A stretch of DNA of 64,000 nucleotides from positions 1-64,000 of IMG/VR virus record IMGVR_UViG_2890901082_000001, one strand, 5' to 3'. Below, piece after piece: positions 21,430 to 38,417 of the stretch. The notes beneath the pieces are model-generated. The model saw only the letters and a list, made by a program, of their open reading frames with translations, ran no database searches and was not told the origin of the DNA. Origin of the DNA: a virus. The translations under genes and the position numbers were made by a program. Position 1 is the stretch's first letter; every line of letters starts with the position of its first letter.

Positions 21430-22305
21430 TTATGAAGAGAATAAGTTTCCCGACTGTGCAGATACAGGAATCTGTTTACTCATTGAGCAGGCACAAGTGT
21501 CCTCATATGCGAAAGATAAAGCGGGGATTTCATCTCTTACGCAGTTACGGATCGCCTGAAGGTCTTTTCTGAAAATTTGATCAAAAACTTTTAACCCTTT
21601 TCTTTTGAAAAGCTCTGATGGAAGTTCACTAATAATTTCTCCTGAATCGCTGACTTGCTTAATACCAATGATACAGTTCATTGCTATTTTTCTCCAAAAT
21701 TCAATGTCATCGTCATAGCTGTTTTCATGTTGAATACAGTCGCGTAACGTTGGGGCCCTAAATTCAAACTGATTAAAAGTGATGCCGTCTAGTTCTGGCT
21801 CAACAAGTTCTCCTCTTTTTTTAGGAGATTTGTAGACATACCCTTCTGTAAGTTTTGTAGTCAACACATCAAACTCGCCATCTGCCTCGTCAATTTTTTC
21901 ATAGTCTTCTTCCGAGTAGTCTATCTTGTGTAAGTCTACATCCATCGCTAGCGTTTTCGTGCAGTACTTACAAATCACTTCTTGATTTTCCAATAAGTCC
22001 TCCCACAAGTGTCTATGAATCTCTAGGAGCAGTGTATTTGCAACAGCCATAGGCATCGCTAATACTACTTGAGGAATTTTCACATCCCCACTTTCCGCGA
22101 ATTTCTTGCGAACTTCTTCAGCACTTGAATGCCTCCCTAATTGGGAACACCCCGCACTGATCACATTAGCGAACCAAGAAAACGGTTTTTCTGAATTTCG
22201 CTTAGTGAAGATTTTTTCTGCAGCACCATTAATTGGTAGAAGAGTGGCCTCCTCTACTCTATCGCCCGAAAACGAATAGGTTACGTCTAGTTTAATTGTT
22301 TTCAT
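21430..22305 (-). CDS. hypothetical protein in the tail assembly chaperone position (291 aa)
   Basis: Lies between the tube and tape measure genes. Contains CKYC and CAC cysteine pairs. Confidence 0.35.
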   Translation of the reverse strand: MKTIKLDVTYSFSGDRVEEATLLPINGAAEKIFTKRNSEKPFSWFANVISAGCSQLGRHSSAEEVRKKFAESGDVKIPQVVLAMPMAVANTLLLEIHRHLWEDLLENQEVICKYCTKTLAMDVDLHKIDYSEEDYEKIDEADGEFDVLTTKLTEGYVYKSPKKRGELVEPELDGITFNQFEFRAPTLRDCIQHENSYDDDIEFWRKIAMNCIIGIKQVSDSGEIISELPSELFKRKGLKVFDQIFRKDLQAIRNCVRDEIPALSFAYEDTCACSMSKQIPVSAQSGNLFSS

Positions 22306-22959: not shown

Positions 22960-24789
22960 TTATGATACGTTTAGGACACCATCATTTCTATTCAATGAGA
23001 TGTTAGCATACTCCAATACCTCCGTTGGAATCCAATTTATATCGATGTTCTTTTCTTTTCTACTTTGTCCCACAGGATTATTTTGTTCATCCGAAACAAA
23101 GATGTATGCTTCTTCAAATGGAATAGAGTTTTCTAAAGCCCCAAGCTCATATTGTCTCTTGAAAAATTGACGTAAAGAAGTCTTTGCTTGCCCTACCAAA
23201 TCTCCCGAATTAGAGGTTTGAGATAGCCATTGATAGTTTTCATCAATGTAATTGAGATAAAACATCGTTTGTCGTCTAATGGAAATTGACTGATGCAATT
23301 CAGCTTTCGACTGACTTCTAGACGAGACAACAAAGAATCCGTTTTTGTTAGTGTGACCAATAAAGTTTACACCGTATGCTTCCAAATACTTTGTATGTTC
23401 TTTTCTATCAAATGATTTTGTATCTACAGTAATCGCATTGATCCTTGCACCAACTCCTCCAGGTACAATATGTGCGTGTCCTCCTTGATTTTTAGATAGA
23501 TGGATATAGGCTGAACCAATAATTGAAGATGCTGAAGGAATAATCTTCTTATATTTTCCATCTTGGATCGTCATCCACCCCACATACACCGCAGTATTTG
23601 AAAGGGATTCTCCACTATTCAAAGCATCGTTATAGGCTATAAAATCGCTTTCTCTTGCATTTTTTGGAGTATTGCAAACAAAGGTTACTCTGCCGTTTTC
23701 TAGGGCGTAGGCATTGCCATATTGAGCCATTTCAAGAGTCTGTACATCCGATAGGACTATTTGTACATCTTGACCATCAAAGAGCTTGAATCCTTTTTTC
23801 TCGTCATTTTCTACTACTCCTTCATAATCTGCTTCTGTTGGAGTAACATACAATCCCCCCGTCAGCATTAGAGTAACCTTACTCGTTAATGTGTGTTCTG
23901 GAGAATTAGCTTCTAGTAGTACATACTTTGAGGATTCAGAACGCTCAGAAAGTTCAATCATGTCTGATGCATAAAGGGTATCTACCACTACACCATCCTC
24001 GTACACAACCATCGCCCACTCTGAGGGAGAAGGGTGATCCAAGATAGACTGACTTGGAGGAAATACATCAACCATTAGTAGATTGCCATGCTCTCCTGGT
24101 GACTCCGTTCCATTAAATGCTGAAGTAACGGTAAATACCTTCAAAGGATCTACAGTTGTATTTGCTACTGAAACTACTAAAGCAATTGCAGTATTTGCTT
24201 GCGTGTGACTTACTGTAAGTGTATTTTTTGAATACGCATACGTGTAGTCTTCAAATACAGCTACAGCATTAACTTTCTGAGAGGTTAGCCATTCTGAAAG
24301 TCTTTTCACAAAATTGCTAATTGACTCTCCTTTCTGAGCTACAACTTCATGGTCTGAAGAACCGTCATTGATGATAACTTTATCTCCTTCTTCTAGTGCA
24401 GAAAAAGAGTATTTTTTTGAGGCTAATTTATCCGCTTCAACCGCCTGCAGTTCGTCTTCTACAACTGCTTGATCATTAATTGGAGCAACCGTATATGATG
24501 CCGTTGCTGCAGTAGATCCCTCTCCCGCTAAACGAATACCATACATGGTAACGCCATACTGACCTGCGTGTTTGTACATTGCTTCTACTTGCACATCCGC
24601 TTTGGTTGGGGATCCGACCCCAAAAACTTCTCTGTCTTCAGAAAGGGAAGTAATTTCGATAGGGACATTTACCGGCCCTTTACTTCTCTGCATTATCATT
24701 CCAACATTATGCTTAGAGACTCCCGCTTTTGGGGACGTTGCATTTGAAATGCCTTCTTGGAGATTTAACCCCAGTAATTTTTTTGACAT
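22960..24789 (-). CDS. contractile tail sheath protein (609 aa)
   Basis: The N-terminus (GISNATSPKAGVSKHNVGMIMQRSKGPVNVPIEITSLSEDREVFG) and the C-terminal region are typical of phage sheath proteins. Size fits. Confidence 0.8.
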   Translation of the reverse strand: MSKKLLGLNLQEGISNATSPKAGVSKHNVGMIMQRSKGPVNVPIEITSLSEDREVFGVGSPTKADVQVEAMYKHAGQYGVTMYGIRLAGEGSTAATASYTVAPINDQAVVEDELQAVEADKLASKKYSFSALEEGDKVIINDGSSDHEVVAQKGESISNFVKRLSEWLTSQKVNAVAVFEDYTYAYSKNTLTVSHTQANTAIALVVSVANTTVDPLKVFTVTSAFNGTESPGEHGNLLMVDVFPPSQSILDHPSPSEWAMVVYEDGVVVDTLYASDMIELSERSESSKYVLLEANSPEHTLTSKVTLMLTGGLYVTPTEADYEGVVENDEKKGFKLFDGQDVQIVLSDVQTLEMAQYGNAYALENGRVTFVCNTPKNARESDFIAYNDALNSGESLSNTAVYVGWMTIQDGKYKKIIPSASSIIGSAYIHLSKNQGGHAHIVPGGVGARINAITVDTKSFDRKEHTKYLEAYGVNFIGHTNKNGFFVVSSRSQSKAELHQSISIRRQTMFYLNYIDENYQWLSQTSNSGDLVGQAKTSLRQFFKRQYELGALENSIPFEEAYIFVSDEQNNPVGQSRKEKNIDINWIPTEVLEYANISLNRNDGVLNVS

Positions 24790-24796
24790 ATCTATT

Positions 24797-25378
24797 TTAA
24801 ATTGAAGGTGATTTAATATTTAAGTTGATGTTTACTATAGATGGAACAAACTCTTCAGGTTGGCTAGGAGCAACCCACAGGAATACCGTGAAGTCTGCCA
24901 CATGTTCAAACACCCCATCCGTAGTGTCTAAGTCCCTATAGTTTACTGTATATCGGCATCGGCACAATCCATAGTACTTAGTTGAGTATTCAAACCATCC
25001 CTCGCTACCAAATTTTTGAAGAAAAACCGTCTTAACTTGTTGATTATCTTCGTAACTAGATGTTATCGATTTGACATCAAACTTATACTCTATGTAGTAA
25101 GGGGACTCTAACAGTAGATTATTTGGAAGAATTACCTTTGGTGCAATCGAGGGCATGTTATGATACATTGTAGAAGGAGCTTGACCTCTAGGAATAATAA
25201 GCAAGCTATTAGCACTATAATCTTCAGCCGTCAGATTTTTGCTATCTCCTTTTCTTGAAAACTTTACCTTCAAGCTGAGTTGCTTTCCGTCTCTAGTAGC
25301 ATCAAAAGGTTCATCGTGATTTTGACCACAAAACTGACTTGAAAAGAGTGCATCCCCTTCTATGAATTCATGTATCAT
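24797..25378 (-). CDS. hypothetical protein in the tail terminator/completion position (193 aa)
   Basis: Positional only. Confidence 0.35.
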   Translation of the reverse strand: MIHEFIEGDALFSSQFCGQNHDEPFDATRDGKQLSLKVKFSRKGDSKNLTAEDYSANSLLIIPRGQAPSTMYHNMPSIAPKVILPNNLLLESPYYIEYKFDVKSITSSYEDNQQVKTVFLQKFGSEGWFEYSTKYYGLCRCRYTVNYRDLDTTDGVFEHVADFTVFLWVAPSQPEEFVPSIVNINLNIKSPSI

Positions 25379-25737
25379 TTAATGTATTTTTTTAGTCGAT
25401 TGGCAGTAGTTAGTAATGCACCTCCTGTTTTTGTTTTGGAGAGTGATCTAACTCCTTTCCATATTTTTGATTTTAGCTTTTTACCCTTTGGATCATTGTT
25501 TAACCACTTTTTAGCAGTTTTTCCAAGTGTATTAGAGGCACTACCTTGATCGTCTTTATAACCCATCGCAGCGCCAACAAAACTTCCCGCTTTTCTGCCA
25601 AGAGCCCCTTTCGCAAAACCTGTAACTGTCTTCTTATTTATAAAATGAGACTTGACTGTTTTCTTATTTCCACACTTCCTTTTGTGGGACCTTACGATTC
25701 TACCTTTTCTGTAGTGTGATTTTACTATAGTATTCAT
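25375..25737 (-). CDS. KSHYRK-leader basic protein family, member 1 (120 aa)
   Basis: MNTIVKSHYRKGRIVRSHKRK..TVKSHF leader (three KSH copies), then GAAMGY Gly-rich segment. Confidence 0.7.
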   Translation of the reverse strand: MNTIVKSHYRKGRIVRSHKRKCGNKKTVKSHFINKKTVTGFAKGALGRKAGSFVGAAMGYKDDQGSASNTLGKTAKKWLNNDPKGKKLKSKIWKGVRSLSKTKTGGALLTTANRLKKYIK

Positions 25738-26519
25738 CAGCGTTTCTTTTTATTTTTCATAAGCATAGCCCACTTTTCTTTTTGGCTAGCTCTGGATGAA
25801 TCATTTACATATTCGGCGCCCTTGGTTTGATTACCTGTACCAAAAACCTTTTCATGGGATTCTGGTAAGGTTGCTTTTTGAACACCTTTATTTATACTGC
25901 CAAGACTTGCAGGGGAACCCTTTGGTGGATCATATAAACTTTCGATCATTTTTTGAAAGTTGAAGTCTTTACCATTTGCTCTTGCATCCGTAAGCATATC
26001 CTGCAGGGGCTTTGTAGTAAATCCTTCTCCTGTATAGGCTACACCGGAATGTTTATTAAGTTGTGCTAATTCAGACATACGTCCTCTTGCACCAATGGAC
26101 TTCGTTATGCTTGAATCACTACCTGGAAGTTTAATCTTTGTTTTTAGCGCGACAGGCATTGCTAGAATAATGTCAGTTTCTTTATCACGCAGTCTACCAA
26201 GGTCGTCCGTATAGGAGTTTGTAAAATTATTTGACCCCGCTATTTTTCTGAAGCTCCCTCCTGACGTAGTAAATTTATTATTGAACTTATTTATAGTACT
26301 GCCAATCGCATTATCAAGAGAGTGTCTATGTTTATAAGCCAAGCCACTACCAATAAGAATACCGCCAATCTTTGCTCCAAGTCTTAGGTATTTTTTATTC
26401 TTCTTTGTAAACTTTTTGGCATGAGAAAGTTTCTCATTCAAAGACTTAAATTGCTTACGAAAATGAGATCTAACTTTTACAGTTTTTCCTTTTCGATAAT
26501 GTGATCTTACTACTATCAT
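25737..26519 (-). CDS. KSHYRK-leader basic protein family, member 2 (260 aa)
   Basis: MIVVRSHYRKGKTVKVRSHFRK leader, then LGAKIGGILIGSGLAY segment and a long unique C-terminus. Confidence 0.75.
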   Translation of the reverse strand: MIVVRSHYRKGKTVKVRSHFRKQFKSLNEKLSHAKKFTKKNKKYLRLGAKIGGILIGSGLAYKHRHSLDNAIGSTINKFNNKFTTSGGSFRKIAGSNNFTNSYTDDLGRLRDKETDIILAMPVALKTKIKLPGSDSSITKSIGARGRMSELAQLNKHSGVAYTGEGFTTKPLQDMLTDARANGKDFNFQKMIESLYDPPKGSPASLGSINKGVQKATLPESHEKVFGTGNQTKGAEYVNDSSRASQKEKWAMLMKNKKKR

Positions 26520-26992
26520 TAAGAGTTAAACTTTCTTCTAATTCTTCTTCCTCTAGCTTTCACTCTAGCATTAATTGTGATCGCAGGTTCATTATATTTA
26601 GCCTTCCATCTTTTAGACATTCCACTACTAAAATTTTTAGCATTAACTACAATTTGAGCTAGATGTTCTTTTGCTTTTACAGGCTCCGTAAACGCTAACT
26701 GATTATATTCTTTCAGTACTTTATCAGGGCTTTGTGTTGAGGAAACTCCTTTACTAAAAGCTCTTAGTGAAGACCTGCTAAGACCTTTTCTTGCACCATG
26801 AACAAATCCAGAATTAAATCCCCTGTCTGCTCCATATTTATAAGCCCCCGCTGTTGCTGCAGATAAGGCAAGTACTCCTGCTCCTGCTATACCAATAGCT
26901 TTTAGATGTCTTTTAAAAAAGCTTTTTTTAACGGCTCTTTTGTGTGATCTAATGATCTTACCTTTTCTGTAGTGGCTCTTAACTATGATCAT
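26519..26992 (-). CDS. KSHYRK-leader basic protein family, member 3 (157 aa)
   Basis: MIIVKSHYRKGKIIRSHKR leader, then IGIAGAGVLALSAATAGAY segment. Confidence 0.75.
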   Translation of the reverse strand: MIIVKSHYRKGKIIRSHKRAVKKSFFKRHLKAIGIAGAGVLALSAATAGAYKYGADRGFNSGFVHGARKGLSRSSLRAFSKGVSSTQSPDKVLKEYNQLAFTEPVKAKEHLAQIVVNAKNFSSGMSKRWKAKYNEPAITINARVKARGRRIRRKFNS

Positions 26993-27588
26993 CGCTTTCT
27001 TATTTTACGAGGCTTATTTCTTGCAGTCAGTCTTGCATCTTTTCTATTCTTGAAGATGTTGCCTACATAAGAGGCAGCTTCTGATCTATCCATCTTTCCC
27101 GACTTAACCGCAGCATTAATGGCTTTTACATTCTTCAAGTCATCTGAAGAAATTTTGCCTACTGAGTTTTTATAGCTAGAGATGTTATTGGAATCTAATC
27201 CAATTACTTTTTGAGCATACATATCAGAATTTCTTAAATACTTTCTTTTTCTGTACCCTCCGTCCATCCAAGTAAGGGAGTTGCTTGACTTACCTTTACT
27301 TGTGTTTCTTTTTGCTACCTGCTTACTGCCCTCCATTAGATGATCAGCGTTAGCTCCATCTCTTTTTAGGTTAATCCACCCTTTATTATAAGCTAAAGCA
27401 CCCGCAGCTGCAGAACCAAGAATCGCTCCTCCAATTGCAAGCTTACCTTTATGCTTTTTTGCGAATTTTTTAGTAGCTGAAATTGCTGAACTAAGACGTT
27501 GTTTAGTCGATCTTTTGTGAGACTTAATGACAGCTACCCCACCTCCGCTTTTTTTACGGAAGTGGGATTTTACAATTACTGTTGCCAT
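26989..27588 (-). CDS. KSHYRK-leader basic protein family, member 4 (199 aa)
   Basis: MATVIVKSHFRKKSGGGVAVIKSHKR leader, then IGGAILGSAAAGALAY segment. Confidence 0.75.
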   Translation of the reverse strand: MATVIVKSHFRKKSGGGVAVIKSHKRSTKQRLSSAISATKKFAKKHKGKLAIGGAILGSAAAGALAYNKGWINLKRDGANADHLMEGSKQVAKRNTSKGKSSNSLTWMDGGYRKRKYLRNSDMYAQKVIGLDSNNISSYKNSVGKISSDDLKNVKAINAAVKSGKMDRSEAASYVGNIFKNRKDARLTARNKPRKIRKR

Positions 27589-27591
27589 AGA

Positions 27592-28050
27592 CTACTTCTT
27601 ATTTCTTGAAGCTCTTTTCTTTTTAAGGTATGATAGCTTAGCACCTCGCGCTGCACCTCTAACTTTACCATACCCTGACTTAACATCGCCTGCGATACCT
27701 TTTGTCAGTCCACGACCCGCACCTTTTGCTGCACTTACAGCTGTACCAAATCTGCCTTTTCCTGCAGCCTTTGCAGAGAACGCACTAGAGAGTGCTTTAC
27801 CTGATAATCCATATCTTTTGTTTGCACCGTAAGCTGCTGCACCTAAAGCTGCTGCTGCTCCGATACCGCCTGCAATTTTACGTTTGTGTTTACCTGCAAA
27901 TGCTCCAGCTTTACCTACAGCACCTTTTGCTTTAGTATACATCCCTTTAGCTCTTTCTTTAAGGGATTTTTTTGAGCGTTTATGAGACTTAACAACAGAC
28001 ATCTTACCCGATGCGGATTTTCTGTAATGTGACTTAACCGTAGTTACCAT
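27592..28050 (-). CDS. KSHYRK-leader basic protein family, member 5 (152 aa)
   Basis: MVTTVKSHYRKSASGKMSVVKSHKR leader, then GGIGAAAALGAAAYG segment. Confidence 0.75.
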   Translation of the reverse strand: MVTTVKSHYRKSASGKMSVVKSHKRSKKSLKERAKGMYTKAKGAVGKAGAFAGKHKRKIAGGIGAAAALGAAAYGANKRYGLSGKALSSAFSAKAAGKGRFGTAVSAAKGAGRGLTKGIAGDVKSGYGKVRGAARGAKLSYLKKKRASRNKK

Positions 28051-28057
28051 TTTTTTA

Positions 28058-28300
28058 TTATCGTTTAATTAGTTTTGAACCATACTTGACAGCATTTTTT
28101 GTGATGCCATCTATCGCTTTTCCTGTGACAACTCCACCAACAAGACCTCCAATTGGAGAGGCAACAAATTTGTTAGCACTCTTCCAGGCTTTGTTTCCTG
28201 CTTTCTTCAGTTTCGCTCGAATCTTTCCCCGTTTATGGGATCGAACTACACTAACTCCACCCGACTTGCTTTTTCTGTAGTGAGATTTTACTGTAATCAT
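28058..28300 (-). CDS. KSHYRK-leader basic protein family, member 6 (80 aa)
   Basis: Start moved to MITVKSHYRKSKSGGVSVVRSHKR (ATG 28300) by homology with the paralogs. Followed by PIGGLVGGVVTG segment. Confidence 0.7.
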   Translation of the reverse strand: MITVKSHYRKSKSGGVSVVRSHKRGKIRAKLKKAGNKAWKSANKFVASPIGGLVGGVVTGKAIDGITKNAVKYGSKLIKR

Positions 28301-28307
28301 ATTTGAG

Positions 28308-28730
28308 CTATCTAATTGCACTTCCTACCGTTGAAATACCTACACCTGCAGCCATTGCCTTTATTGCACGCTTTTCTTCTTTTGTGTAAGCATTCCATTT
28401 TGCTTTAAAGATGTTTTGCCCTGAATCCCTATTCTTTGTATAGCGCTCCTTATGTGCTTTTCTTGCATCGAGGTGTTGACCAAAACCTGCTCGGATAAAA
28501 TTCTGGCCTTCTTTTCTTCGCTTCAGGTAGTACTTATTCAGCTCGTCTCTTTGTGCCATCCCTAGGTACGCACTACCACCCGCTGTAGTTAATCCTCCCA
28601 CCACCTTTAGACCGGTAGCTACTCCTTTTCGGAAGTGGGATTTAATAGTTTTAGAATCTCTTTTGTGAGACTTTACAACAGAAACTCCACCGCCTTTATT
28701 TTTTCGATAATGTGATTTTACTGTAATCAT
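28308..28730 (-). CDS. KSHYRK-leader basic protein family, member 7 (140 aa)
   Basis: MITVKSHYRKNKGGGVSVVKSHKRDSKTIKSHFRK leader (three copies), then VVGGLTTAGGSAYLG segment. Confidence 0.75.
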   Translation of the reverse strand: MITVKSHYRKNKGGGVSVVKSHKRDSKTIKSHFRKGVATGLKVVGGLTTAGGSAYLGMAQRDELNKYYLKRRKEGQNFIRAGFGQHLDARKAHKERYTKNRDSGQNIFKAKWNAYTKEEKRAIKAMAAGVGISTVGSAIR

Positions 28731-29050
28731 CTGTGTGCTTTTTGTTTTTGTGCCTTAATTCCATCAGCTAGGATATTTATTCCATACTGACCATACTTTT
28801 TTACTGAAGGGATGACTGTATTATTTATCGTAGGAATCAGTTTACCTTTTCCGTGTGAGTATCCTAAACCAAGTAAAGCCCCTGTCTTTAGGTTGCTATA
28901 GAATCTCTTTCTCTTTTTTTCAGATTCAGAAAAAGGGTTGCCAATTACACGCGAAACAAAATGACTTCTGACAGTTGTTCTCTTGTGAGATTTTATGACT
29001 GAAACCCCACCTTTGCGTTTTTTACGAAAGTGACTTTTTACTATTGTCAT
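28727..29050 (-). CDS. KSHYRK-leader basic protein family, member 8 (107 aa)
   Basis: MTIVKSHFRKKRKGGVSVIKSHKRTTVRSHF leader, then GALLGLGYSHG segment. Confidence 0.75.
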   Translation of the reverse strand: MTIVKSHFRKKRKGGVSVIKSHKRTTVRSHFVSRVIGNPFSESEKKRKRFYSNLKTGALLGLGYSHGKGKLIPTINNTVIPSVKKYGQYGINILADGIKAQKQKAHR

Positions 29051-29301
29051 TTTTTTCTTGTATTAAATATTCCCTTACCTATACTTTCAGACAATGCGCT
29101 TGAAAATTCTGATGGTAACTTTTTTATGTCATTGCGTAGTTTGACTCCACCAGCTCCTAAAGCAGCTCCCCCCAAAAGTGCTGCTGAATGTGTAAGCTTA
29201 CTTTTATGTTTTTTAGCAAAGTCTGTAACTCGTTTTTTTAGTGATCGCTTATGTGATCTAACAAGCTTACCCCCACGGAAATGTGACTTGACCGTTATCA
29301 T
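29047..29301 (-). CDS. KSHYRK-leader basic protein family, member 9 (84 aa)
   Basis: MITVKSHFRGGKLVRSHKR leader, then ALLGGAALGAGG segment. Confidence 0.7.
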   Translation of the reverse strand: MITVKSHFRGGKLVRSHKRSLKKRVTDFAKKHKSKLTHSAALLGGAALGAGGVKLRNDIKKLPSEFSSALSESIGKGIFNTRKK

Positions 29302-29561
29302 ATTCGTAAGTGATTTTCATGTGAAACATTCGGGATCGATTGAGAAGGACTTTTTGAAGAAAATTCATCTCTTCTTTTTTGAAGCAAAGCACTTACATAA
29401 AAAATTCGATCTAGGAATTTTGCGTGAGGTAAGTGTCCTAAAATTGCTCGCTTTACAGGGCTAAATTTTCTAACAATAGAATGTCTAGATCTGAAGTGTG
29501 ATTTAACTACACTAACTCCTCCTTTTTTCTTCCTTCTGTAATGTGCTTTTACTGTTGCCAT
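29298..29561 (-). CDS. KSHYRK-leader basic protein family, member 10 (87 aa, divergent tail)
   Basis: MATVKAHYRRKKKGGVSVVKSHFR leader. No Gly-rich segment. Confidence 0.55.
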   Translation of the reverse strand: MATVKAHYRRKKKGGVSVVKSHFRSRHSIVRKFSPVKRAILGHLPHAKFLDRIFYVSALLQKRRDEFSSKSPSQSIPNVSHENHLRI

Positions 29562-29764
29562 TAAACCCCTCGTTTTACATACACCATCTTTCCAGATGCA
29601 GCACGAACTTTCTTACCCATTCCCTTGTTTGCTCTGGAGTAGCTTTTTACGTTTGAAGCTTTACGGGTATAACCTCGGACGGTTACTACTTTACCGTTTT
29701 TCATTTTTCGCTTGTGAACACCAACTTTGTTTGCTTGGCGTTTGTACATTCCGACTTTTTGCAT
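29561..29764 (-). CDS. very basic 67-aa protein, degenerate relative of the array family
   Basis: Repeated V-x-x-(K/Y)-(K/T)-R-K-like units (VGMYKRQ, VGVHKRK, VRGYTRK, VKSYSR). 1-nt overlap with member 10. Confidence 0.5.
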   Translation of the reverse strand: MQKVGMYKRQANKVGVHKRKMKNGKVVTVRGYTRKASNVKSYSRANKGMGKKVRAASGKMVYVKRGV

Positions 29765-29821
29765 GTCTATTTTCTTTTAAATCTTTGAGAAGTTTTTCAA
29801 TGAGTACCCTTATATGTTGCA

Positions 29822-30256
29822 TTAGATTGTAAAGTGATCAGCAAACAATTCTTTTGCGGACTGTTTTGATCCAGACTTTTTTCGCAACTTCTTCATGGCC
29901 TTCTTACCTTCTTTTGTATTCTTGCTCCAAGTGTCTGTTGGTTTGCTCATTTTCACTTTTTCAGAATCTACGATGTGACCCAATTCGTGCCTAAGAATCT
30001 TCCCAAAGTTCTCCCCGCTTTTGCCGATTTTATTTACATCCATGTTTAGCTCATGACTAACTGGCTTCATCTTTTTTTCATCGACTTTAGTAGCCACATG
30101 TGCAAGACTAGTACCCTCTGCCTTATGGTTTAGATTAACCTTTATAGGAGTTTGAATACCGTACTTGTTTTGAACTTCACGTACATGGCTTCTAACTGTA
30201 GCAAGTTTTCCGTTCTTCTTCTTGAAGTGAGATTTTACTCGAACAAATCTTCCCAT
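29822..30256 (-). CDS. array family member 12 carrying an HExxH zinc-metallopeptidase-like motif (144 aa)
   Basis: Leader MGRFVRVKSHFKKKNGKLATVRSHVR, then ILRHELGHIVDSE (HELGH). Confidence 0.7.
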   Translation of the reverse strand: MGRFVRVKSHFKKKNGKLATVRSHVREVQNKYGIQTPIKVNLNHKAEGTSLAHVATKVDEKKMKPVSHELNMDVNKIGKSGENFGKILRHELGHIVDSEKVKMSKPTDTWSKNTKEGKKAMKKLRKKSGSKQSAKELFADHFTI

Positions 30257-30987
30257 TATTTTCTGCTAAGGGGCGTATTATTCTTAGGGTTCAACCCTAA
30301 AGCAACTGCATTTTCGAAGTGTGCTTTTAGCTCTTTCCTGACTACTTCTTCAAGTTGCTTTTTCATGTCGGGCAACGTTTCATCCAAAGTGGGGCGCCAA
30401 TGGGGCATTCCATGTGGGCGTTGCTTAAAACCGTATTCTAATTGTAGTGCTAGCTTTGAGAGGGGTATTTTTGAACGGGGATGTTCGCCCTCTTTTATAC
30501 CAACTGCATAAAATCCGTCAGTATCACTTTTGGTTACTTCTAGTGAGTTGATATAAGATTCTGTATCTATGAGGGGGGTATTGGATTCAGAACCTCTTGC
30601 TGTTCGCTTTTTTAGTGTTGATTCGTTAAGCTCATATCCAAACTTGTTGCTTTGGAGATTTGCTTTAAGTTGTTTTATGTATGCTTCAGCATTAAGTTTA
30701 GAGACTTCTTTAAGTCTATCTTGTAGCTCTTTAGGCAAGTTAGCTAGTTCATTGCGCTCTTTCAAGCTACTAGCTATTTTTTCAACTTCTTTTTTTTCGG
30801 ATGCTTTAGAAAACTCTGTTTTAGTCGCCTCCGATTTCTTATGAAACGTTTCTTTTTCAGCTTTCGCTTCTTTTTTAAGTACTGTCTCTTTTGTACGAAA
30901 AAAGGTCTTTGTAAGCGATGAAGCTTTATCCAAAGACCTTTCCATATTCGAGAACAGTTTTTCAAGTGTGTGTAAAAAACTACTCAT
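30256..30987 (-). CDS. neck/tail-completion protein, HK97 gp10-like C-terminus (243 aa)
   Basis: LEYGFKQRPHGMPHWRPTLDE resembles the HK97 gp10 family core. K/E-rich N-terminal extension. Confidence 0.4.
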   Translation of the reverse strand: MSSFLHTLEKLFSNMERSLDKASSLTKTFFRTKETVLKKEAKAEKETFHKKSEATKTEFSKASEKKEVEKIASSLKERNELANLPKELQDRLKEVSKLNAEAYIKQLKANLQSNKFGYELNESTLKKRTARGSESNTPLIDTESYINSLEVTKSDTDGFYAVGIKEGEHPRSKIPLSKLALQLEYGFKQRPHGMPHWRPTLDETLPDMKKQLEEVVRKELKAHFENAVALGLNPKNNTPLSRK

Positions 30988-31420
30988 TGTATAACTGTTT
31001 ATTACTTTCTAGTTCAATTCGAATAGCCAAGCAAGAATTATATAGTTCATCCTCTAAAGTGATTTTCGGGGAGAAGTACTCTTTACCTAAAAATTCAACT
31101 CTGAGGTTTTTATTGTCAAGGCTAGTTGACCCTATTATTCGGTTTAATTGTATAGGAGAAATCATGATGTCTGCTGTAGAACTTGAAAATCTACCTTCCT
31201 CCCTACGCTCCTCTTGCTGTGATTGTTTGTTATATAAACAATTTATCGTATACGACTTTTCTACTACTTCTACTTCTCCAATAAAATTTTTAAATCCATT
31301 TTCTGAAGGAAGTGCTTTTCGTATATGAAGACGAACAGAAAAAGGGGAATTTTCAACCTCCTTATGCACTCTTGATTGAAGTGCTAAAAACCGCTGTAGT
31401 GTGAGAGAGTTTGTTATCAT
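30980..31420 (-). CDS. head-tail connector/head closure candidate (146 aa)
   Basis: Positional only. Confidence 0.35.
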   Translation of the reverse strand: MITNSLTLQRFLALQSRVHKEVENSPFSVRLHIRKALPSENGFKNFIGEVEVVEKSYTINCLYNKQSQQEERREEGRFSSSTADIMISPIQLNRIIGSTSLDNKNLRVEFLGKEYFSPKITLEDELYNSCLAIRIELESNKQLYNE

Positions 31421-32316
31421 TCGTTGAATATTGTATGCGATGGATCAAGAAGACCTCGTGTATAAGGAGAAAGCGTATATGGATACGAATCGAAATGAGC
31501 TAAATAATTCGAAGTCTTCTCTAATTGAGTATCACTAACCCTCAATACATCTGGTCTTAATGAAAAATCTTTATATCGTTGCTCAACTATACCTCTCAAA
31601 TGCAATTGCAGTCTATACCAAAAGCTAGACTCATCACCAAAAACGTTTTCACTGCCAATTTTTTCTATTCTAGCAAAATCTTGCGATGAAGGATTTTCTG
31701 ATAAAGATAGGTTGCCAATAGTAGCATTGACTGTCACATCCGTATTTACAGGATTTTGAGTTATTCCATTTTTTGTAACTGAAACATCTAATGACATTGT
31801 TGCTTTTTCTGCAACCCTTCTCTTCTCTAACAATCGATAAGCACACCAAGTAGCAAAGTGACCTACAGGAAAAAATCTACCAAGTTCGTCAAAGATTTCT
31901 TCTGTTGTAGTACTTAGTATCTGTACGTCATGCACTTCAATAAACCATGCTAATACTTCTGCAATCGTGCTTTCACTGAAGAAGTTTTTTTTATAAAAAG
32001 CATAAGGACTATCTATGCTAACATCAGATACTTGAACAAGGTCGCTACATAGATCCGTACTTGAATAAAAACTTGGCCCAAGAGACAGAACAATATCAGG
32101 AGCTTGAACAATGAGTACGTTTATCAAATCTATTACAGGAGTCTCAGGACTGAAATCCAGAATTAAATAGTCGCCACCCCCGTTTACAACTTTCAACATG
32201 TTGTCTGAGATTGTAAGAACACCTTCATTATGCTGTATATGTCCCAAATTTGTGACAAAACGATCATAAGAAAGTTCTCTTACTGATGTAATAAATTTCT
32301 GATACAACGTACTCAT
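31417..32316 (-). CDS. hypothetical structural protein (299 aa)
   Basis: Lies within the head-neck operon with 4-nt overlaps. Confidence 0.4.
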   Translation of the reverse strand: MSTLYQKFITSVRELSYDRFVTNLGHIQHNEGVLTISDNMLKVVNGGGDYLILDFSPETPVIDLINVLIVQAPDIVLSLGPSFYSSTDLCSDLVQVSDVSIDSPYAFYKKNFFSESTIAEVLAWFIEVHDVQILSTTTEEIFDELGRFFPVGHFATWCAYRLLEKRRVAEKATMSLDVSVTKNGITQNPVNTDVTVNATIGNLSLSENPSSQDFARIEKIGSENVFGDESSFWYRLQLHLRGIVEQRYKDFSLRPDVLRVSDTQLEKTSNYLAHFDSYPYTLSPYTRGLLDPSHTIFNE

Positions 32317-32712: not shown

Positions 32713-33696
32713 TTAATTAGTTACAATTTTTGCGATGTTTTTTTCTTCGATCAAGCCCGTACCCCAGATAGCATACCAAGCTAGACTTTTGATTCTTCCG
32801 AAATCACTAACACCCGATTCACGAATTTGTGGCATTAAACCCCAAGCATTACCATAAGCATTCTCGCCAAAGATAACTGCTTCGGATACTCTGTCAGAAG
32901 GAGCCGTTACTCCATACTTCGTTGCATAAGCAGCGGGATCATAAACAGGCATTTGAGTTGTCTCAAGGAAGACTACACCCTCATAAGTGCCTATTTCACC
33001 TGAAAAAAGTTGACGTGTACCAGCATATTTATTCGCCTCGATCCATCTTGAATCCTCGCGTAATTGCCTTAACTGCCTTGGAGATGCGATACATACGTAG
33101 TACTCTCCATTGAACTTAGGGGCATCATTAGAGGCTAATAGTTCAACTGCATCTAATACAGAATTTGAATCAAAATTATCTGATCCCGATAGTGATGCAA
33201 GATCGGCTTTACCACCACCATACAATACGTTTGGTGTAGATGTTACAATATCTCTCAACTCACTATCTAGAGTTTTTGCCATATCGTTTGAAAGAGCAAT
33301 AGTTGCCTCCTCAATCAAATCAAACATGGATACACGTAACTTAAACTCTGAGAGTGTTACTGCATTACCTTTCTCTTGAACCGTAATTCCAATTTCACTG
33401 GAACTAAGTGCTTGAGATGAAATTGTAGCGTGTTCATCCAATGTGCCACCACTAACGCCTAAATCATCAAAACGAGTGAAGATTACCTGCTTACCTGGTG
33501 CAGTCATTAAGTTTGTTTTCTCCTTAGCAAATTGAAGAAACTTCAGTCGTGGTTGTGCATGATATAAAAGCTCACGCGAGTAAACATCACGAACTGCTTG
33601 AGAAAGTACCGTACCATTTGTGCCTGGGCTTGTAGCGTTATACCCGCCTTGGATAGCAGAAGAATATGCTTGACCGTTACTATTAACGAAAGACAT
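32713..33696 (-). CDS. major capsid protein (HK97-fold type, 327 aa)
   Basis: Size. Position after the scaffold-like gene. The N-terminal region (AVRDVYSRELLYHAQPRLKFLQFAKEKT) is typical of capsid proteins. Own motif copy upstream. Confidence 0.7.
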   Translation of the reverse strand: MSFVNSNGQAYSSAIQGGYNATSPGTNGTVLSQAVRDVYSRELLYHAQPRLKFLQFAKEKTNLMTAPGKQVIFTRFDDLGVSGGTLDEHATISSQALSSSEIGITVQEKGNAVTLSEFKLRVSMFDLIEEATIALSNDMAKTLDSELRDIVTSTPNVLYGGGKADLASLSGSDNFDSNSVLDAVELLASNDAPKFNGEYYVCIASPRQLRQLREDSRWIEANKYAGTRQLFSGEIGTYEGVVFLETTQMPVYDPAAYATKYGVTAPSDRVSEAVIFGENAYGNAWGLMPQIRESGVSDFGRIKSLAWYAIWGTGLIEEKNIAKIVTN

Positions 33697-33722: not shown

Positions 33723-34679
33723 CTACCCTCCGTAATTCGCTGACATCTGCGCTCGTACTGATGCTAGAGCAGCTTCACGCACATTGGCGTATTCTGGAGA
33801 GTCCCCCCTCATACCTGGAGCGATCAGTTGGTTCTCGGTTGGTGTTGTGACAACGGACTGAACGGGCGGGTATGGGGCTTGCGCTTGAGGAGTCTGATAC
33901 ATTTGAGCAACAGATGGTTGCTGCGGTTGTTGTGGTTGAGCTACTGCTTGTTGTGTAGGTTGTGCAGTTGGCTGTACTCCTTGTTGCGGTTGTTGTGGTT
34001 GAGCGTTGTTGTACCTCGCTCTCGCCATTTTTGAGGCTTCAACTGAAGCATCGATTTCTTGAGGTGTTCCTCCCATGATCATTTCGGGAATGATCTGATC
34101 ACCGTATTCTGAAATCTTTTGCTGTCGGTAGTTCTCAATCTGTTGGTGCTGTACTGACTGTAGCGTTTGAGTAAGTGGGGCTACTGTTGCCTGTAAAATA
34201 TCATTTACTTTACTAGCTACGATTTGGTCCAAGTTTTGATTTGCAGCGGGGATTTGTTGTACTGTAGGAACAGTCTCTACCCCTTGCTGTGGTTGAGTCT
34301 GGTTGTGATTCTGAGGTTGTGGGGATTGAGGAGGCTGAACCTGTTGGTTAGTCGCAAGTTGAGATCTAAGATTGTTGACCGTATCATACATTCTATTTTT
34401 CTCTACTTGTCTTTGACTATTCAGATAAGCTTGAGCTTGATCTAAAGGAACAGCTTGGCCGTCGAGCATAATTGTTTGAACCTGTTGTGGCTGTGGCGGT
34501 GTTGGATTCTGTTGTGGTTGCGGAACTGTATGTGTCACGTTCTGCGAAGTGTTGCTTTGAATCTGTTGCTGAACCTGTTGGCTCGAAGCTGACGTTTGAA
34601 CAGGGGTAGTCCCTGTAGTCTGTACAGATTGTGGTGGATTAGGTGTTGCCGTGGGTTGTTGTGCTGTATTTTGTGACAT
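33723..34679 (-). CDS. Gln/Pro-rich low-complexity protein in the scaffolding position (318 aa)
   Basis: Lies between the portal and capsid genes. QQPQQ-type repeats flank a helical core. Confidence 0.4.
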   Translation of the reverse strand: MSQNTAQQPTATPNPPQSVQTTGTTPVQTSASSQQVQQQIQSNTSQNVTHTVPQPQQNPTPPQPQQVQTIMLDGQAVPLDQAQAYLNSQRQVEKNRMYDTVNNLRSQLATNQQVQPPQSPQPQNHNQTQPQQGVETVPTVQQIPAANQNLDQIVASKVNDILQATVAPLTQTLQSVQHQQIENYRQQKISEYGDQIIPEMIMGGTPQEIDASVEASKMARARYNNAQPQQPQQGVQPTAQPTQQAVAQPQQPQQPSVAQMYQTPQAQAPYPPVQSVVTTPTENQLIAPGMRGDSPEYANVREAALASVRAQMSANYGG

Positions 34680-35057: not shown

Positions 35058-36950
35058 TTATTCTTCTTGCGGGGGGGTTCCCGAGGATTCTAATTCCCTC
35101 TGTTCCACTAATTTTTGTGCTTCCAACTCTTTATTGAAAATTGCCATTTCTTTCTGTTGATCATTGGAAAGCTTGTTTTGTTTCTCGGCAACTTTAAGTT
35201 GTTCTGCATTTGTAAACTGAGTTTGTCGTATGTTTCTTTCTTCCTCAGCTATTCTTTGTCTGTGCTGCTGCTCTTCTTGATAATTCATTTGTCTAAGCTG
35301 CTGCTCCTCCTGTAAGCCAGCTTGGAATATTGCCATTTCTTTCTGCATATTTTGCTGCTCAATTTGCAGTTTGAGTTGCATTTCTTGTTGAACTTCCTGC
35401 ATTTTCAACTGAGCTTGCTGCTGTATCTCCTGTAGCTTGATTTGTTGCCTTTGCTGAAGTTCTTGCATTTCAATCTGCACCTCAGTTTGTACCTTTTGCT
35501 GCATATTGGCTCTCTCCGCTTCTACTTCGGCCTCCGCTATCTTTTCATTTTTCCACTCTTGCATCACTTCTTCTGCGTTATTTACACCCAGATTATTCAT
35601 GATTCTTTTCTTTGAATTGATTCCAAGTTGAAGCTCTGTTTGTGCAACTTGAACTTCTTGGATCTTATCTTGAGGGAAACCGTATTCGAAGACAGGCTCT
35701 ATCTTATATTCATTTTCAAAAAGAACACTTTCTATAGAGTCTAGTTCTGCAATTGTTTTCTTGATATAGGGAACATTGCCCCCCATAATTCTCGAAATTT
35801 TGAAAGCTAATGCATTAAGACTTGCAATACCTTCAGCATAGCACATCCATTTTTGATCCGCTTCCTGAATAATCGGGTGATAGGTTAGCTTAAGAGCTGC
35901 TGCAGAAGTATTGGATATAGCTTGAATTTTTCCAAGCGAATTTTCGGGAACATTCGAAAGTTCATGCATCGACATTTTCAAACTATCTCTATAGTCTTTT
36001 GCTGCCGAAAGATCTACATCCAATCCCAAGTTAAATACCTGTGCTTCGGGCGGAAGTCCTGACCAAACTTTTCCAAGACCACGAACTAATCCTCCAACGC
36101 TTGCCCCTGTAACTACAGTCGTTGGGCTAGAGTGATAATCAATTATGGCTTTAATATCCAAGGACATTTCGTTATAAATCTTATTGATTTTTAGGATGTC
36201 GTTTGCATCGGATACTCCAAAATAGTGTCCTGCCCTCGGTCTATTTTTTATATGGACTATTGGTATAAATCCAAACTTATTCTCTGCCTCGCTGAATTCA
36301 TACTTTTGGGGATTGACGTAAGAGGTATCTATTTGGAACCAAGTCTGAATCGTTTCTTTGGTAAACCTTGTAATCTTTAGTTTATAGTTGTTTTTGTTTT
36401 TTACTAAAGGCTGACGAATCATAAAAGCAGTTACATCGTCAAACTCCCCCTTATCAAATTCGGGGTAACAATGTCTACTATCTAATACAGAGAATTTTAC
36501 ATAATTCATGTCTGGGACCCATTGTGCCATCGCCCAAACATCTCCGCAAACACTTCCCATCTGAAGCAGTTCATGTGCAAAGATCGCTTTGCCTGTCAGT
36601 TTCCAATGTCGAAGTAAAAACTGTTCTGCTTTTCTCTCTATATCTTCATCCACTACATCAGTAGAGTACTTTGTCACTTTGAAAGAAAAACCATTTTTAC
36701 CAAGAAGGTACATATTGATCTTATCTACAAAGGCTTTTACATAGTTAAAAGCAAGAAGTGTTTCGTTCAGATCTTTCCAATGTTCACCATTATAGAACTT
36801 CCAAAAAAGATTGTATCGTAAAATTCTTTTTGTTTCTGTTTCCGGTGCGCCCGCAATAAAAGTAGAACTTACATAATCACGAAGTATAGTGCTGCCCTCC
36901 TCATTAACCTTGTTATAAGGGTTGACAGTCACTTTCTGATTAAGTGCCAT
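35058..36950 (-). CDS. portal protein with Gln/Glu-rich coiled-coil C-terminal extension (630 aa)
   Basis: N-terminal ILRYNLFWKFYNGEHW portal-type motif. Size. Position near terL. Confidence 0.75.
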   Translation of the reverse strand: MALNQKVTVNPYNKVNEEGSTILRDYVSSTFIAGAPETETKRILRYNLFWKFYNGEHWKDLNETLLAFNYVKAFVDKINMYLLGKNGFSFKVTKYSTDVVDEDIERKAEQFLLRHWKLTGKAIFAHELLQMGSVCGDVWAMAQWVPDMNYVKFSVLDSRHCYPEFDKGEFDDVTAFMIRQPLVKNKNNYKLKITRFTKETIQTWFQIDTSYVNPQKYEFSEAENKFGFIPIVHIKNRPRAGHYFGVSDANDILKINKIYNEMSLDIKAIIDYHSSPTTVVTGASVGGLVRGLGKVWSGLPPEAQVFNLGLDVDLSAAKDYRDSLKMSMHELSNVPENSLGKIQAISNTSAAALKLTYHPIIQEADQKWMCYAEGIASLNALAFKISRIMGGNVPYIKKTIAELDSIESVLFENEYKIEPVFEYGFPQDKIQEVQVAQTELQLGINSKKRIMNNLGVNNAEEVMQEWKNEKIAEAEVEAERANMQQKVQTEVQIEMQELQQRQQIKLQEIQQQAQLKMQEVQQEMQLKLQIEQQNMQKEMAIFQAGLQEEQQLRQMNYQEEQQHRQRIAEEERNIRQTQFTNAEQLKVAEKQNKLSNDQQKEMAIFNKELEAQKLVEQRELESSGTPPQEE

Positions 36951-36975: not shown

Positions 36976-37776
36976 CTATACAGCTACTTTTGCCGATATA
37001 GCTGGGTGAGGGTTGTAATCGTTTAAATGAATTTGATTGAAATCTAAATCCTCGATGTTTGCGTTTTTTTCAATGTCAAGGGATAGTGTAGGTAGTTGCC
37101 GTTCTACTCTACTTAAGACTTCCTTAACCTGATTAATGTGATTGCTATAAATATGAGCATCGCCAATTGTGTGTATAAATTCACCGACTCCATACCCACA
37201 AATTTGTGCGATAACATGCGTAAGAAGAGCATAACTAGCGATATTGAAAGGAACGCCCAAAAAGAGGTCGGCTGATCTTTGGTATAATTGGCAAGATAGT
37301 TTTTTGTCTTTCGAAACATAAAATTGAAAAAGTAGATGGCACGGAGGCAAGGCCATTTCTTGCAAGTCCGAAACATTCCACGAAGATACAATATGTCTAC
37401 GACTTTTAGGATCTCTTTTCAAATCATAAATCAATTTTGAAATCTGATCGTATTCGATACCTAAATTATCTCTCCAGCTCCTCCACTGCTTACCGTATAT
37501 TGGTCCCAAGTCTCCAAATTCATCCGCCCACTCATTCCAAATACGTACACCATTTTCATTCAGATACTTTATGTTGGTATCCCCCTTCAGGAACCAAAGC
37601 AATTCATGAACGATGCTTTTCCAATGCAGCTTCTTAGTCGTCTGTAATGGAAATCCTTTATTCAAGTCAAAACGCATTTGATAACCAAAAACAGAAAAGC
37701 AACAAATACCCGTCCTATCTTCTCGTAACTCGCCATGCTCTAATACATGGCTTAACAATTTGTGATACTGCTCCAT
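36976..37776 (-). CDS. thyA: thymidylate synthase (ThyA-type)
   Basis: [43 protein letters not shown] and the catalytic [13 protein letters not shown]. Confidence 0.9.
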
Positions 37777-38417
37777 TATAATCCTTTCGCTACAGCTCTG
37801 CTATGTGAATCTACCATAATAGATTTTTGATGTGACAGTTCTGATTGAGTATAAAACACTTTAGCAAATTTTGAGGTATGTGTAATTGACTCTGCTTCTT
37901 CTACCCCCCTTGCCATCATGCATGTGTGTCTTGCCGAAACCATGACAGCAATTTCTCCATGTCCCAGTATCTTAGAAAATACATGATGAATAATCTTTGT
38001 TAGATTTTCTTGTGTGGTTGGTTGCTTTGCAAGGTATTGTATCAGTCTAGGTATTTTTGAAAGACCAAGTATCAATCCATTTTTTGGGTTGTATCCAAAA
38101 CTAACTTTACCAAAGAAGGGCATAAAGTGATGCTCGCAGTAAGAGTAAAAACGAATATCCGATAGCATTACAAACTCAGCATTAGGTTCTTTAAATGCCG
38201 TTATTTTAGGTACTTTGGTAGGATCAAGACCGTGGACTAATTCATTGGTGAAGAACTTTGCTATTCGCTTCGGGGTATCTCTCAACCCTTCCGACTCTGC
38301 GTTTAAGCCAAGCGTTTGTATGATACTCAGTACAGATGCTTCTATCTTTTCTTGAGGAGAAATTTTAGTTTCTTCAGCAACGGGATTCTTAGCTTTTTTC
38401 TTTTTTGTTTCTTTCAT
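37776..38417 (-). CDS. folE: GTP cyclohydrolase I
   Basis: [20 protein letters not shown] and HTCMMARGV signatures. Confidence 0.85.

Follow-up and report, generated by a model that had tools for sequence, protein, structure and literature searches.

A tandem array of twelve leader-tagged basic proteins in a Flammeovirga phage-like element as candidate virion-internal cargo

What would a phage do with a dozen small, strongly basic proteins that open with the same peptide and are encoded one after another among its virion genes? The question is raised by a phage-like element on a 95.9-kb contig of Flammeovirga agarivorans, a marine member of the Bacteroidota, which we analysed over a window of 64,000 nucleotides (positions 1 to 64,000 of IMG/VR record IMGVR_UViG_2890901082_000001). 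At positions 25375-30256 of the minus strand, 12 consecutive co-oriented open reading frames (ORFs) encode proteins of 67-260 amino acids (aa) each, here called M1-M12, as an earlier note on this DNA had described. Their isoelectric points (pI) range from 10.3 to 11.7, and Lys and Arg make up 20-31% of their residues. From sequence comparison, we tentatively favour the reading that the array encodes virion-internal, co-ejected polycationic proteins, for which the shared leader, a predicted hairpin, may act as a docking tag.

The leader itself is readily recognised. A six-frame translation of the window contains 23 copies of the motif [VIT][KR][SA]H[YFKV][RK], all of them on the minus strand and confined to N-termini in the array, where 11 of the 12 ORFs have it. 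These 11 members open with M-x(1-4)-V-K-S-H-[YF]-R-K, continue with a Gly/Lys turn and end the leader with V-[VI]-[KR]-S-H-x-R. M2 carries a degenerate or generalised form (VGVHKRKMKNGKVVTVRGYTRK plus VKSYSR), and a hidden Markov model (HMM) of the leader detects all 12 members, M2 included. The third motif copy ascribed to three members was located in M5, M6 and M12. The leader peptide is under selection. When codons for the same motif residue are paired between copies, 62% of the pairs use different codons, and the DNA identity of the leaders is 73-92% over stretches of 18-73 nucleotides (nt). Since synonymous codons have diverged to this extent, the motif has been kept at the peptide level among old duplicates, which bears out the earlier proposal of an old family maintained by selection. 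The members are as follows.

29822-30256, minus strand: M1, leader at 30179-30256 and zincin-like payload, with HELGH at 29975-29989 and a C-terminal ELFAD
29561-29764, minus strand: M2, 67 aa, nearly all leader, generalised motif VGVHKRK..GK..VTVRGYTRK plus VKSYSR
29298-29561, minus strand: M3, leader at 29490-29561, 87-aa basic protein without a clear Gly-rich segment
29047-29301, minus strand: M4, short-linker leader at 29245-29301, basic linker, Gly/Ala segment at aa 37-55
28727-29050, minus strand: M5, three-motif leader at 28955-29050, Gly-rich segment at aa 57-75
28308-28730, minus strand: M6, three-motif leader at 28629-28730, two Gly/Ala-rich segments
28058-28300, minus strand: M7, start taken as the ATG at 28300, leader at 28229-28300, Gly segment at aa 45-63
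27592-28050, minus strand: M8, leader at 27976-28050, Ala/Gly/Lys-rich low-complexity payload with 36% Gly plus Ala
26989-27588, minus strand: M9, leader at 27511-27588, FAKKHKGKL linker, Gly/Ala segment at aa 48-66, basic tail
26519-26992, minus strand: M10, short-linker leader at 26936-26992, most hydrophobic Gly/Ala segment of the array at aa 32-50
25737-26519, minus strand: M11, leader at 26457-26519, Gly segment at aa 44-62, longest payload in a protein of 260 aa
25375-25737, minus strand: M12, short-linker leader with third motif copy at 25639-25737, Gly segment at aa 41-59

The leader is predicted to form a beta-hairpin. In the AlphaFold2 model of M10, which was built with the paralogs as alignment, residues 2-9 and 12-19 pair as two strands. 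This hairpin has a predicted local distance difference test score (pLDDT) of 77-81 and is the most confident part of the model, the remainder being of low confidence. Read along the sequence, the alternating residues would place V, S and the aromatic residue on one face and K, H and R on the other. No Pfam or NCBIfam family covers the motif. The sole library family that touches it is phrog_21154, an unannotated 47-aa profile that matches residues 4-27 of M1 (E 0.0018) and, weakly, M2. The first description had likewise not placed the leader in a characterised family. A leader profile had no match in the PDB, and no PDB chain carries the motif. A literature search for the motif found nothing relevant, and term searches in the main text of Iyer et al. 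2017 (PMC5512222) did not turn up a description either. The leader is a variant of a broader motif, V-K-x-[HY]-x-R...G-K...V-[KR]-x-[HY]-x-R, which is likewise uncurated.

The closest carriers are related phages, most of them from the gut. Searches of IMG/VR and metagenomes with the major capsid protein (MCP) yielded 160 related loci (L-numbered below) at 23-53% MCP identity and nothing closer than about 53%. No relative was found by an MCP-based search of genome contigs, by blastn of the array against 50,697 phage records or by an exact-peptide search of IMG/VR for close relatives. The window's own leader variant, written as a long-linker DNA pattern, had no match in the metagenome and viral collections, and word-indexed searches with leader alignments gave nothing but fragments from the same phage group. 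Among cultured phages, the single relative is Bacteroides phage BS162P1 (L001), whose MCP and sheath are 49% and 27% identical to those of the window. Here, two leader-tagged proteins, MTTVKTHKRKGRNRVSVVRQHNRK... and VQIKPYKRRGKNGSMVSVSGYTRR..., flank the Neck1 gene (L001:7032-7340 and L001:8354-8755). Many loci, both 2-4 kb downstream of the MCP gene and upstream of the structural module, encode small basic proteins with leaders of the form V-[KR]-x-[HY]-x-R-x-x-K-x-G-K-x-x-x-V-[KR]-x-[HY]-x-R. The earlier note had staked its reading on the leader being conserved in related phages, and there it is conserved widely.

How common arrays are was assessed by a census with the leader HMM over 60 loci with full flanks, using a threshold above the best score of shuffled ORFs. 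No leader ORF was counted in 14 loci, one in three, two in five, three in 14, four in 21 and five in two, and a single locus (L047) reached 10; the count for the window with this HMM is 12. Inspection by eye raises L047 to at least 11 leaders, in two clusters. Locus L032 has five tandem leaders between Neck1-like and terminator-like genes, where the HMM counts fewer than four, and hence the HMM undercounts variants. The payloads behind the tag in relatives are mutually unrelated. They include a zincin-like payload, DUF6496 (E 2.5e-11), a NUMOD4-like payload in which the motif is C-terminal, a domain of the giant-protein family phrog_13543 (E 3e-22), and K/E-rich proteins with conserved C-terminal motifs of their own. 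The BS162P1 protein L001:7032-7340 and its homologs in L002, L028, L033 and L178 form a conserved 102-aa leader protein with the payload ALPDGSYPI...RDLANAISxYGRAxNPE..., whose match to the C-terminal part of the 'head maturation protease' family phrog_80 is weak (E 0.008).

Beyond these relatives, a profile search of 1.84 billion representative proteins returned 15 matches, of which the top nine have the lengths of window members (P0003 is identical to M6). Among the remaining matches is P0013, a 1365-aa ART/zincin/ParB-like protein in which the double motif precedes all six of six modules. These include an ADP-ribosyltransferase (ART) toxin domain (35.7 bits against a cutoff of 23.4), three HExxH modules and one with DGHHR (ParB-like). 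The leader of M1 aligns to the six repeats of P0013, and the motif is preceded by the junction RLLAEA(K/T)xx in five of six cases and by MLAETQ at the sixth. A strict degenerate DNA pattern of the double motif (about 2^-40 per position; no match in 100 shuffles of the window) found 43 IMG/VR contigs and 40 genome contigs, and among the array members M8 only. Its carriers fall into four classes: tail-completion proteins, giant proteins of 1000-2900 aa, small N-terminally tagged proteins and cellular proteins.

The giant carriers contain LPD1 (E 2e-21), a C5 DNA methylase (E 7e-55) and a weak ART-PolyVal match. The motif stands at their N-termini or at internal boundaries, and their genes adjoin those for terminase, portal and MuF/head morphogenesis. 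In L114 (L114:5897-10867), L116 (L116:5591-11092) and L083, the motif is preceded by a junction LKAEQLxLF. Together with RLLAEA, this junction is a candidate proteolytic processing site for the embedded zincin modules. The giant polyvalent proteins look like concatenated units of junction, hairpin and domain, and comparison suggests that the window, L047 and L032 encode the same units as separate genes, accompanied by a leader-tagged zincin.

That zincin is M1, which combines HELGH with a C-terminal ELFAD in an HExxH...E signature. Orthologs lie at the same genomic position in L047 (L047:13564-14127, BLASTP E 3e-20) and L032 (L032:13635-14234), and H90, E91, H94 and E136 are the same in all three proteins. 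No other phage was found to have a leader-zincin gene, and each of these three has a tandem array. Profile matches to ATLF (E 0.008 and 0.0018) and M91 for M1 and the L047 ortholog, to SprT-like for L047 and to eCIS_core for L032 are all sub-threshold. Neither M1 nor a zincin profile of the three orthologs matched the PDB, save for one chance-level ribosomal match, and a word-indexed homology search with M1 returned M1 itself alone. The AlphaFold2 model has a low-confidence helix at residues 79-95, over the HExxH. In the absence of a significant profile or PDB match, and with a poor model, M1 is a zincin-like candidate at the motif level only. Judged from its sequence, it is a putative metallopeptidase and a plausible candidate for the processing enzyme of the family.

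The other payloads are of a different kind. Most are low-complexity, histone-H1-like and A/K/G-rich, with a pI near 11 and no enzymatic domain; M11 has no family match in Pfam, PHROG or NCBIfam. Nine members, M4-M12, have in common a basic linker, F-x-K-K-H-K-x-K-L, ahead of a Gly/Ala-rich segment that is weakly hydrophobic and about 20 aa long, and they end in a basic C-terminus. The payloads had been described as diverging completely behind the leader. The lengths of 67-260 aa and the basic character hold, but 'hypervariable payload' overstates the case for this array, because these nine members have linker and glycine-rich segment in common. By Kyte-Doolittle hydropathy over 19 residues, the segment of M10 scores 1.69 and the others 0.45-1.42, and no array member has a Gly-zipper match in Pfam. 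The polycation plus Gly/Ala-helix type has been duplicated about ten-fold in the window and therefore suggests a dosage or structural role, not a set of different enzymes. Its duplication suggests coating of the DNA end, charge neutralisation or membrane insertion at entry as possible roles.

A second class of carriers leads into the neck of the virion. A subset of PF05069 (Phage_tail_S) proteins (L086, L099, L084; E 1e-11 to 7e-26) carries the exact motif as a strand-turn-strand before PxRPF. In these carriers, which RefSeq labels 'tail completion or Neck1', the motif stands between HNEGG/AKKGSFG and (M/I)PxR(P/Q)F. PF05069 members that were not selected for the motif (from phages RC1, FP_Mushu and others) hold a strand, a G-G/K turn and a strand of variable sequence at the same position, before IPARPFLG, and the hairpin is therefore native in these proteins. 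In the neck structure of 80alpha, the tail completion protein is a monomer inside the neck lumen. This protein, gp51, contacts the DNA end, and its hairpin pairs with N-terminal strands of the tape-measure protein (TMP); the lumen proteins are basic and face an acidic wall. Two further candidates were rejected: homology of generic tail-completion hairpins to the leader, and, by analogy with 80alpha, a motif at the N-terminus of the window's own tape measure, which has none. Array members have no PF05069 or phrog_5 match and no tail-completion fold signature. The L086 tail-completion protein had no match in the PDB, and tail-completion profiles A6 and A7 gave chance matches only, to STAT3 and PU.1.

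The last class is cellular. Free peptides of 34-37 aa occur in Zixibacteria, Ignavibacteria and a cyanobacterium. The free-standing ORFs of 35-36 aa in L132, L134, L139, L140, L143, L157 and L168 (Zixibacteria, Ignavibacteria and other metagenome-assembled genomes) comprise a basic N-terminus and the double motif and nothing more (e.g. MPRKQPTRRTRVKGYTRTLPSGKKIRVKSYLRKSN); they are conserved across phyla, look ribosomal-protein-like and match no Pfam or NCBIfam family. Small proteins of Armatimonadota carry two to three tandem double motifs of the form VKGYTRTLKSGKTVxVKGYTRK (L129, L130, L131, L148, L156, L158, L160, L161, L163, L167). Some have hydrophobic, signal-like N-termini, and one has a sub-threshold DUF3945 match (E 0.0018). 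In marine Bacteroidota, signal-peptide SH3b proteins (SH3_3, E 1.7e-6) end in the motif as their extreme C-terminus. One carrier, which is lipoprotein-like, matches Excalibur weakly (E 0.01, not reaching the Pfam cutoff), and the motif ends one RHS/YD-repeat-type protein (SH3b, lipoprotein-like and RHS carriers together: L149, L159, L164, L166, L154, L117; L137). Because cellular peptides carry it too, as do proteins with signal-like N-termini, the motif is not specific to virions. The signal-like N-termini of some Armatimonadota carriers argue that the hairpin works outside virions too.

The genomic setting of the array agrees with that first described, between neck and sheath genes, and the landmarks of the structural module could be located.

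30256-30987, minus strand: Neck1/tail-completion-type gene, adjoins the array upstream, stop overlaps the M1 start, phrog_5 E 6e-7, without motif
24797-25378, minus strand: 193-aa gene, adjoins the array downstream, start overlaps the M12 stop, label 'terminator-like' from position only
22960-24789, minus strand: tail sheath gene, UniRef name 'Tail sheath protein', 27% identical to its BS162P1 homolog over 99% of its length
39151-40812: terminase large subunit (TerL)
35058-36950: portal
32713-33696: MCP, N4-gp56-family

The genes had been described as joined by overlaps. This is so at seven of the 11 internal junctions (overlaps of 1 or 4 nt) and at both outer junctions with the flanking genes, but not at the other four internal ones, where gaps of 3-7 nt (three junctions) and 57 nt (M1/M2) intervene. 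The window's Neck1 protein has a degenerate counterpart at the hairpin position in alignment A6. The 193-aa gene has no family match but is conserved in relatives; its counterparts by position and size are L001:9051-9641, L047:14854-15456 and L032:15221-15814. In a cluster look-up of five proteins (M1, M6, M11, MCP and sheath), all were singletons at 90% identity and annotated 'hypothetical'. In BS162P1, the homolog of the window gene at 31417-32316 (L001:4866-6584) continues into a run of N and into a gene annotated as an I-HmuI-like HNH endonuclease, so that this neck gene has either a homing-endonuclease interruption or an assembly gap. Between portal and MCP, a 318-aa ORF (33723-34679) has no Pfam or PHROG match and could, by position, be a scaffold or a protease.

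How could these observations fit together? We infer virion incorporation, ejection, the target of the hairpin, the protease activity and the function of the payloads along the following lines. The array would be a lineage-specific expansion of a small polycationic family, made together with the head-neck genes. Its members would be incorporated inside the virion, in the capsid interior or in the portal-neck lumen beside the DNA end, and would leave the particle with the DNA at infection. The leader, some 20 residues long, would be a portable beta-hairpin in which a G/K turn links two strands of V-K-S-H-aromatic-R, and it would serve as an incorporation or docking tag. Along the path by which the DNA exits, it would probably bind a polyanionic surface (the DNA itself or an acidic channel wall) or else add a strand to a sheet in the neck lumen. 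In M4-M12, basic linker, Gly/Ala helix and basic tail may act on DNA or membrane during entry, and the zincin-like M1 may process the family, as peptidase modules of polyvalent proteins would. Several lines of indirect evidence support the cargo reading: all 12 genes lie in the late structural operon, from Neck1 to sheath, and are mostly coupled; selection acts on the motif as a peptide; relatives carry leader-tagged small proteins at the same place with unrelated payloads behind the tag; the double motif heads the modules of P0013 and the LPD1, ART-PolyVal and C5-methylase giants; a PF05069 subset carries the motif, and the M10 leader is modelled as a hairpin; and all the leader-zincin orthologs found belong to the three tandem-array phages.

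A number of points weigh against this reading. The motif also occurs in cellular contexts (free peptides, Armatimonadota repeats, SH3b C-termini and one RHS-type C-terminus). The ORFs that were scanned between portal and MCP include no recognisable prohead protease, just as none had been noted in the window before, and no scaffold signal, conserved cleavage site or residue pattern was found after the leader. Among the Gly/Ala segments, M10 alone reaches a hydrophobicity typical of transmembrane helices (at least 1.6). The zincin call stays at the level of the motif, with all profile matches sub-threshold and a model of M1 at pLDDT 47. By hhalign, the window leaders have no similarity to tail-completion proteins without the motif (probability 0.4%, the value on which the generic hairpins were rejected), so the link between leader and tail completion runs only through the motif-carrying subset. 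The equivalence of PF05069 to 80alpha gp51 comes from annotation, not from structure, and the T5 tail completion protein is located at the tip of the tail (PMC11784142). Literature searches found none on BS162P1 and nothing relevant, by title or abstract, on Flammeovirga prophages. The packaged-cargo interpretation of the earlier note stands in part: the same tag on polyvalent modules and on unrelated small payloads speaks for it, whereas the motif is not specific to virions and the analogies with T4 and phiKZ have no sequence support.

The presence of the motif in cellular and in apparently secreted proteins makes a generic polyanion-binding hairpin a serious rival, if in our judgement still an unlikely one. 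In that case, the hairpin would bind nucleic acid, the proteins would not be packaged, and they would act late in the infected cell, for example by condensing or coating replicated phage DNA ahead of its packaging, shielding DNA or RNA, or binding ribosomes or RNA; the operon position would then reflect late timing. Cellular mini-proteins and signal-like N-termini outside phages, the histone-H1-like payloads devoid of enzymatic domains, a pattern of H/Y plus K/R that may be typical of nucleic-acid contacts, and a weak resemblance to hairpins of small beta-barrel RNA/DNA-binding proteins are all consistent with such a role. It fits less well with a neck-tail position that is strictly conserved across phages at 23-53% MCP identity, with the co-occurrence of the motif in polyvalent proteins beside portal/MuF genes and inside tail-completion proteins, and with a tag that is N-terminal in almost every small phage carrier examined, which suits docking better. 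Alternatively, the array proteins could be structural or assembly parts, such as plugs, of the neck and tail lumen. The hairpin would let them pair with the tape measure and the tail completion protein, and they would occupy the lumen, keep the DNA end in place and set the ejection trigger, but have no function once the DNA has entered. The array directly follows Neck1, leader genes flank Neck1 in BS162P1, the motif replaces the hairpin in some tail-completion proteins, the 80alpha hairpin pairs with TMP strands among basic lumen proteins that face an acidic wall, and the Gly/Ala-rich helices may resemble tape-measure-like segments. Twelve paralogs of differing length would, however, be hard to fit beside a tape measure of 917 aa, the giant enzyme-bearing carriers cannot be lumen structure, and neither a motif in the window's tape measure nor profile similarity to generic tail-completion proteins was found, so that we regard a purely structural role as improbable.

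The Gly/Ala segments of nine members, set between basic residues, and the long helix that AlphaFold2 places at the M10 segment with low confidence could also point to membrane-active proteins (holin-like, pore-forming or acting in superinfection exclusion), with a glycine-zipper helix and a leader that determines topology only. To this we give very little credit: no segment other than that of M10 reaches 1.6 on the Kyte-Doolittle scale, M1, M2 and M3 have none, the leader-tagged proteins of relatives mostly do without it, no holin or glycine-zipper family is matched, and ten lysis paralogs in a neck module would be unprecedented. That the ORFs are decaying duplicates or spurious frames without function, as the singleton status of the five looked-up proteins and the low complexity of several payloads might hint, is scarcely credible given a peptide motif that is kept while 62% of codons differ, frames that are intact and coupled, and a family and M1 ortholog that are conserved in distant phages. 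Returning to tagged cargo, a more far-reaching form of the proposal would make the doubled V-K-x-[HY]-x-R hairpin a general portable loading signal for the DNA exit path of tailed phages, which docks tail completion proteins, polyvalent modules and small cargo alike at the DNA end or in the portal-neck lumen, so that they reach the host together with the genome or shortly before it. Leader-tagged zincins would release or activate the cargo, and the window would hold an unfused polyvalent protein with one gene per module, 12 units in all. We consider this generalisation possible at best and rather unlikely as a whole.

Comparison with known systems poses the question of whether the array belongs to one of them. 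The T4 internal proteins offer an analogy, since both are clusters of small basic proteins with a short constant N-terminal tag. In T4, attachment of the capsid-targeting sequence (CTS) is enough for virtually any protein to be loaded into the head, and delivery takes place together with the DNA (PMC7697877). The array has, in contrast, no Pfam, PHROG or NCBIfam match to IPI, IPII, IPIII or the CTS. The CTS measures about 10 aa, is cut by the prohead protease and acts at prohead assembly, whereas the array tag is a doubled hairpin of 20-35 aa. The T4 genes belong to a prohead-core module, while those of the array follow the neck genes, with no prohead protease or cleavage site found. Polyvalent proteins, a class for which packaging and injection have been predicted (Iyer, Burroughs, Anand, de Souza and Aravind 2017; PMC5512222), come closer. 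The identical double motif heads modules with LPD1, ART-PolyVal, DNA methylase and ART domains, zincin-like peptidase modules accompany them as M1 does the array, and the genes of both lie among virion genes (portal/MuF there, Neck1 to sheath here) with both predicted to be injected. Polyvalent proteins nevertheless combine 2-15 disparate domains in one polypeptide, unlike the array members of 67-260 aa, which have at most one recognisable module and are mostly non-enzymatic polycations.

Tail completion or Neck1 proteins (lambda gpZ, HK97 gp10, SPP1 gp16.1, 80alpha gp51; PF05069) share the motif in a subset, and the array stands directly after Neck1; their location varies among phages, however (the tail tip in T5), and the array has no PF05069 match. 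The ejection proteins of P22 (gp7, gp20 and gp16) and the internal core proteins of T7-like phages are likewise virion-internal, encoded in late operons and ejected to help DNA cross the envelope. P22-type ejection-protein genes follow the head-completion genes. These proteins are few, large and non-paralogous, without a shared tag, and have no sequence similarity to the array. The inner-body paralogs of phiKZ-like phages belong to jumbo phages and are processed by a prohead protease, whereas the array lies on a 95.9-kb contig with an N4-gp56-family MCP and no recognised protease, and has no PHROG or Pfam similarity to them. The array falls outside the T4-type and polyvalent classes and does not encode a tail completion protein; its kind would be tagged virion cargo on an uncurated motif.

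Three side observations concern other genes. Between portal and terminase, positions 36976-38417 of the window encode a thymidylate synthase (phrog_160, E 1e-117) and a GTP cyclohydrolase (phrog_2197, E 1e-49), an unusual location for nucleotide-metabolism genes that could hint at DNA modification. Downstream of the tube-region genes, a 291-aa ORF (21430-22305) has a near-threshold match to T4_baseplate (PF12322; E 1e-4, 22.5 bits against a cutoff of 24.5). In L047, the large terminase subunit (L047:4352-7099) contains an apparent intein, as read from its sequence, which begins with the Cys after ...MLTS, includes a LAGLIDADG-like MLIGDGSY and has ...ITHN|T at its end.

How phages choose the proteins that they load and inject is understood in mechanistic detail for a few cases only, such as the T4 CTS and P1 Dar, and the loading of polyvalent effector proteins has so far only been predicted. 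A hairpin common to small cargo-like proteins, polyvalent modules and a neck-lumen protein is a concrete candidate for such a loading signal. Should it instead prove to be a generic polyanion binder, it would still be a widespread, uncurated mini-module that deserves a family definition. Taken together, the motif may help to find injected proteins of metagenomic phages by sequence, among them the abundant Bacteroides phages of the human gut, and may possibly offer a tag for packaging foreign proteins into phage particles.

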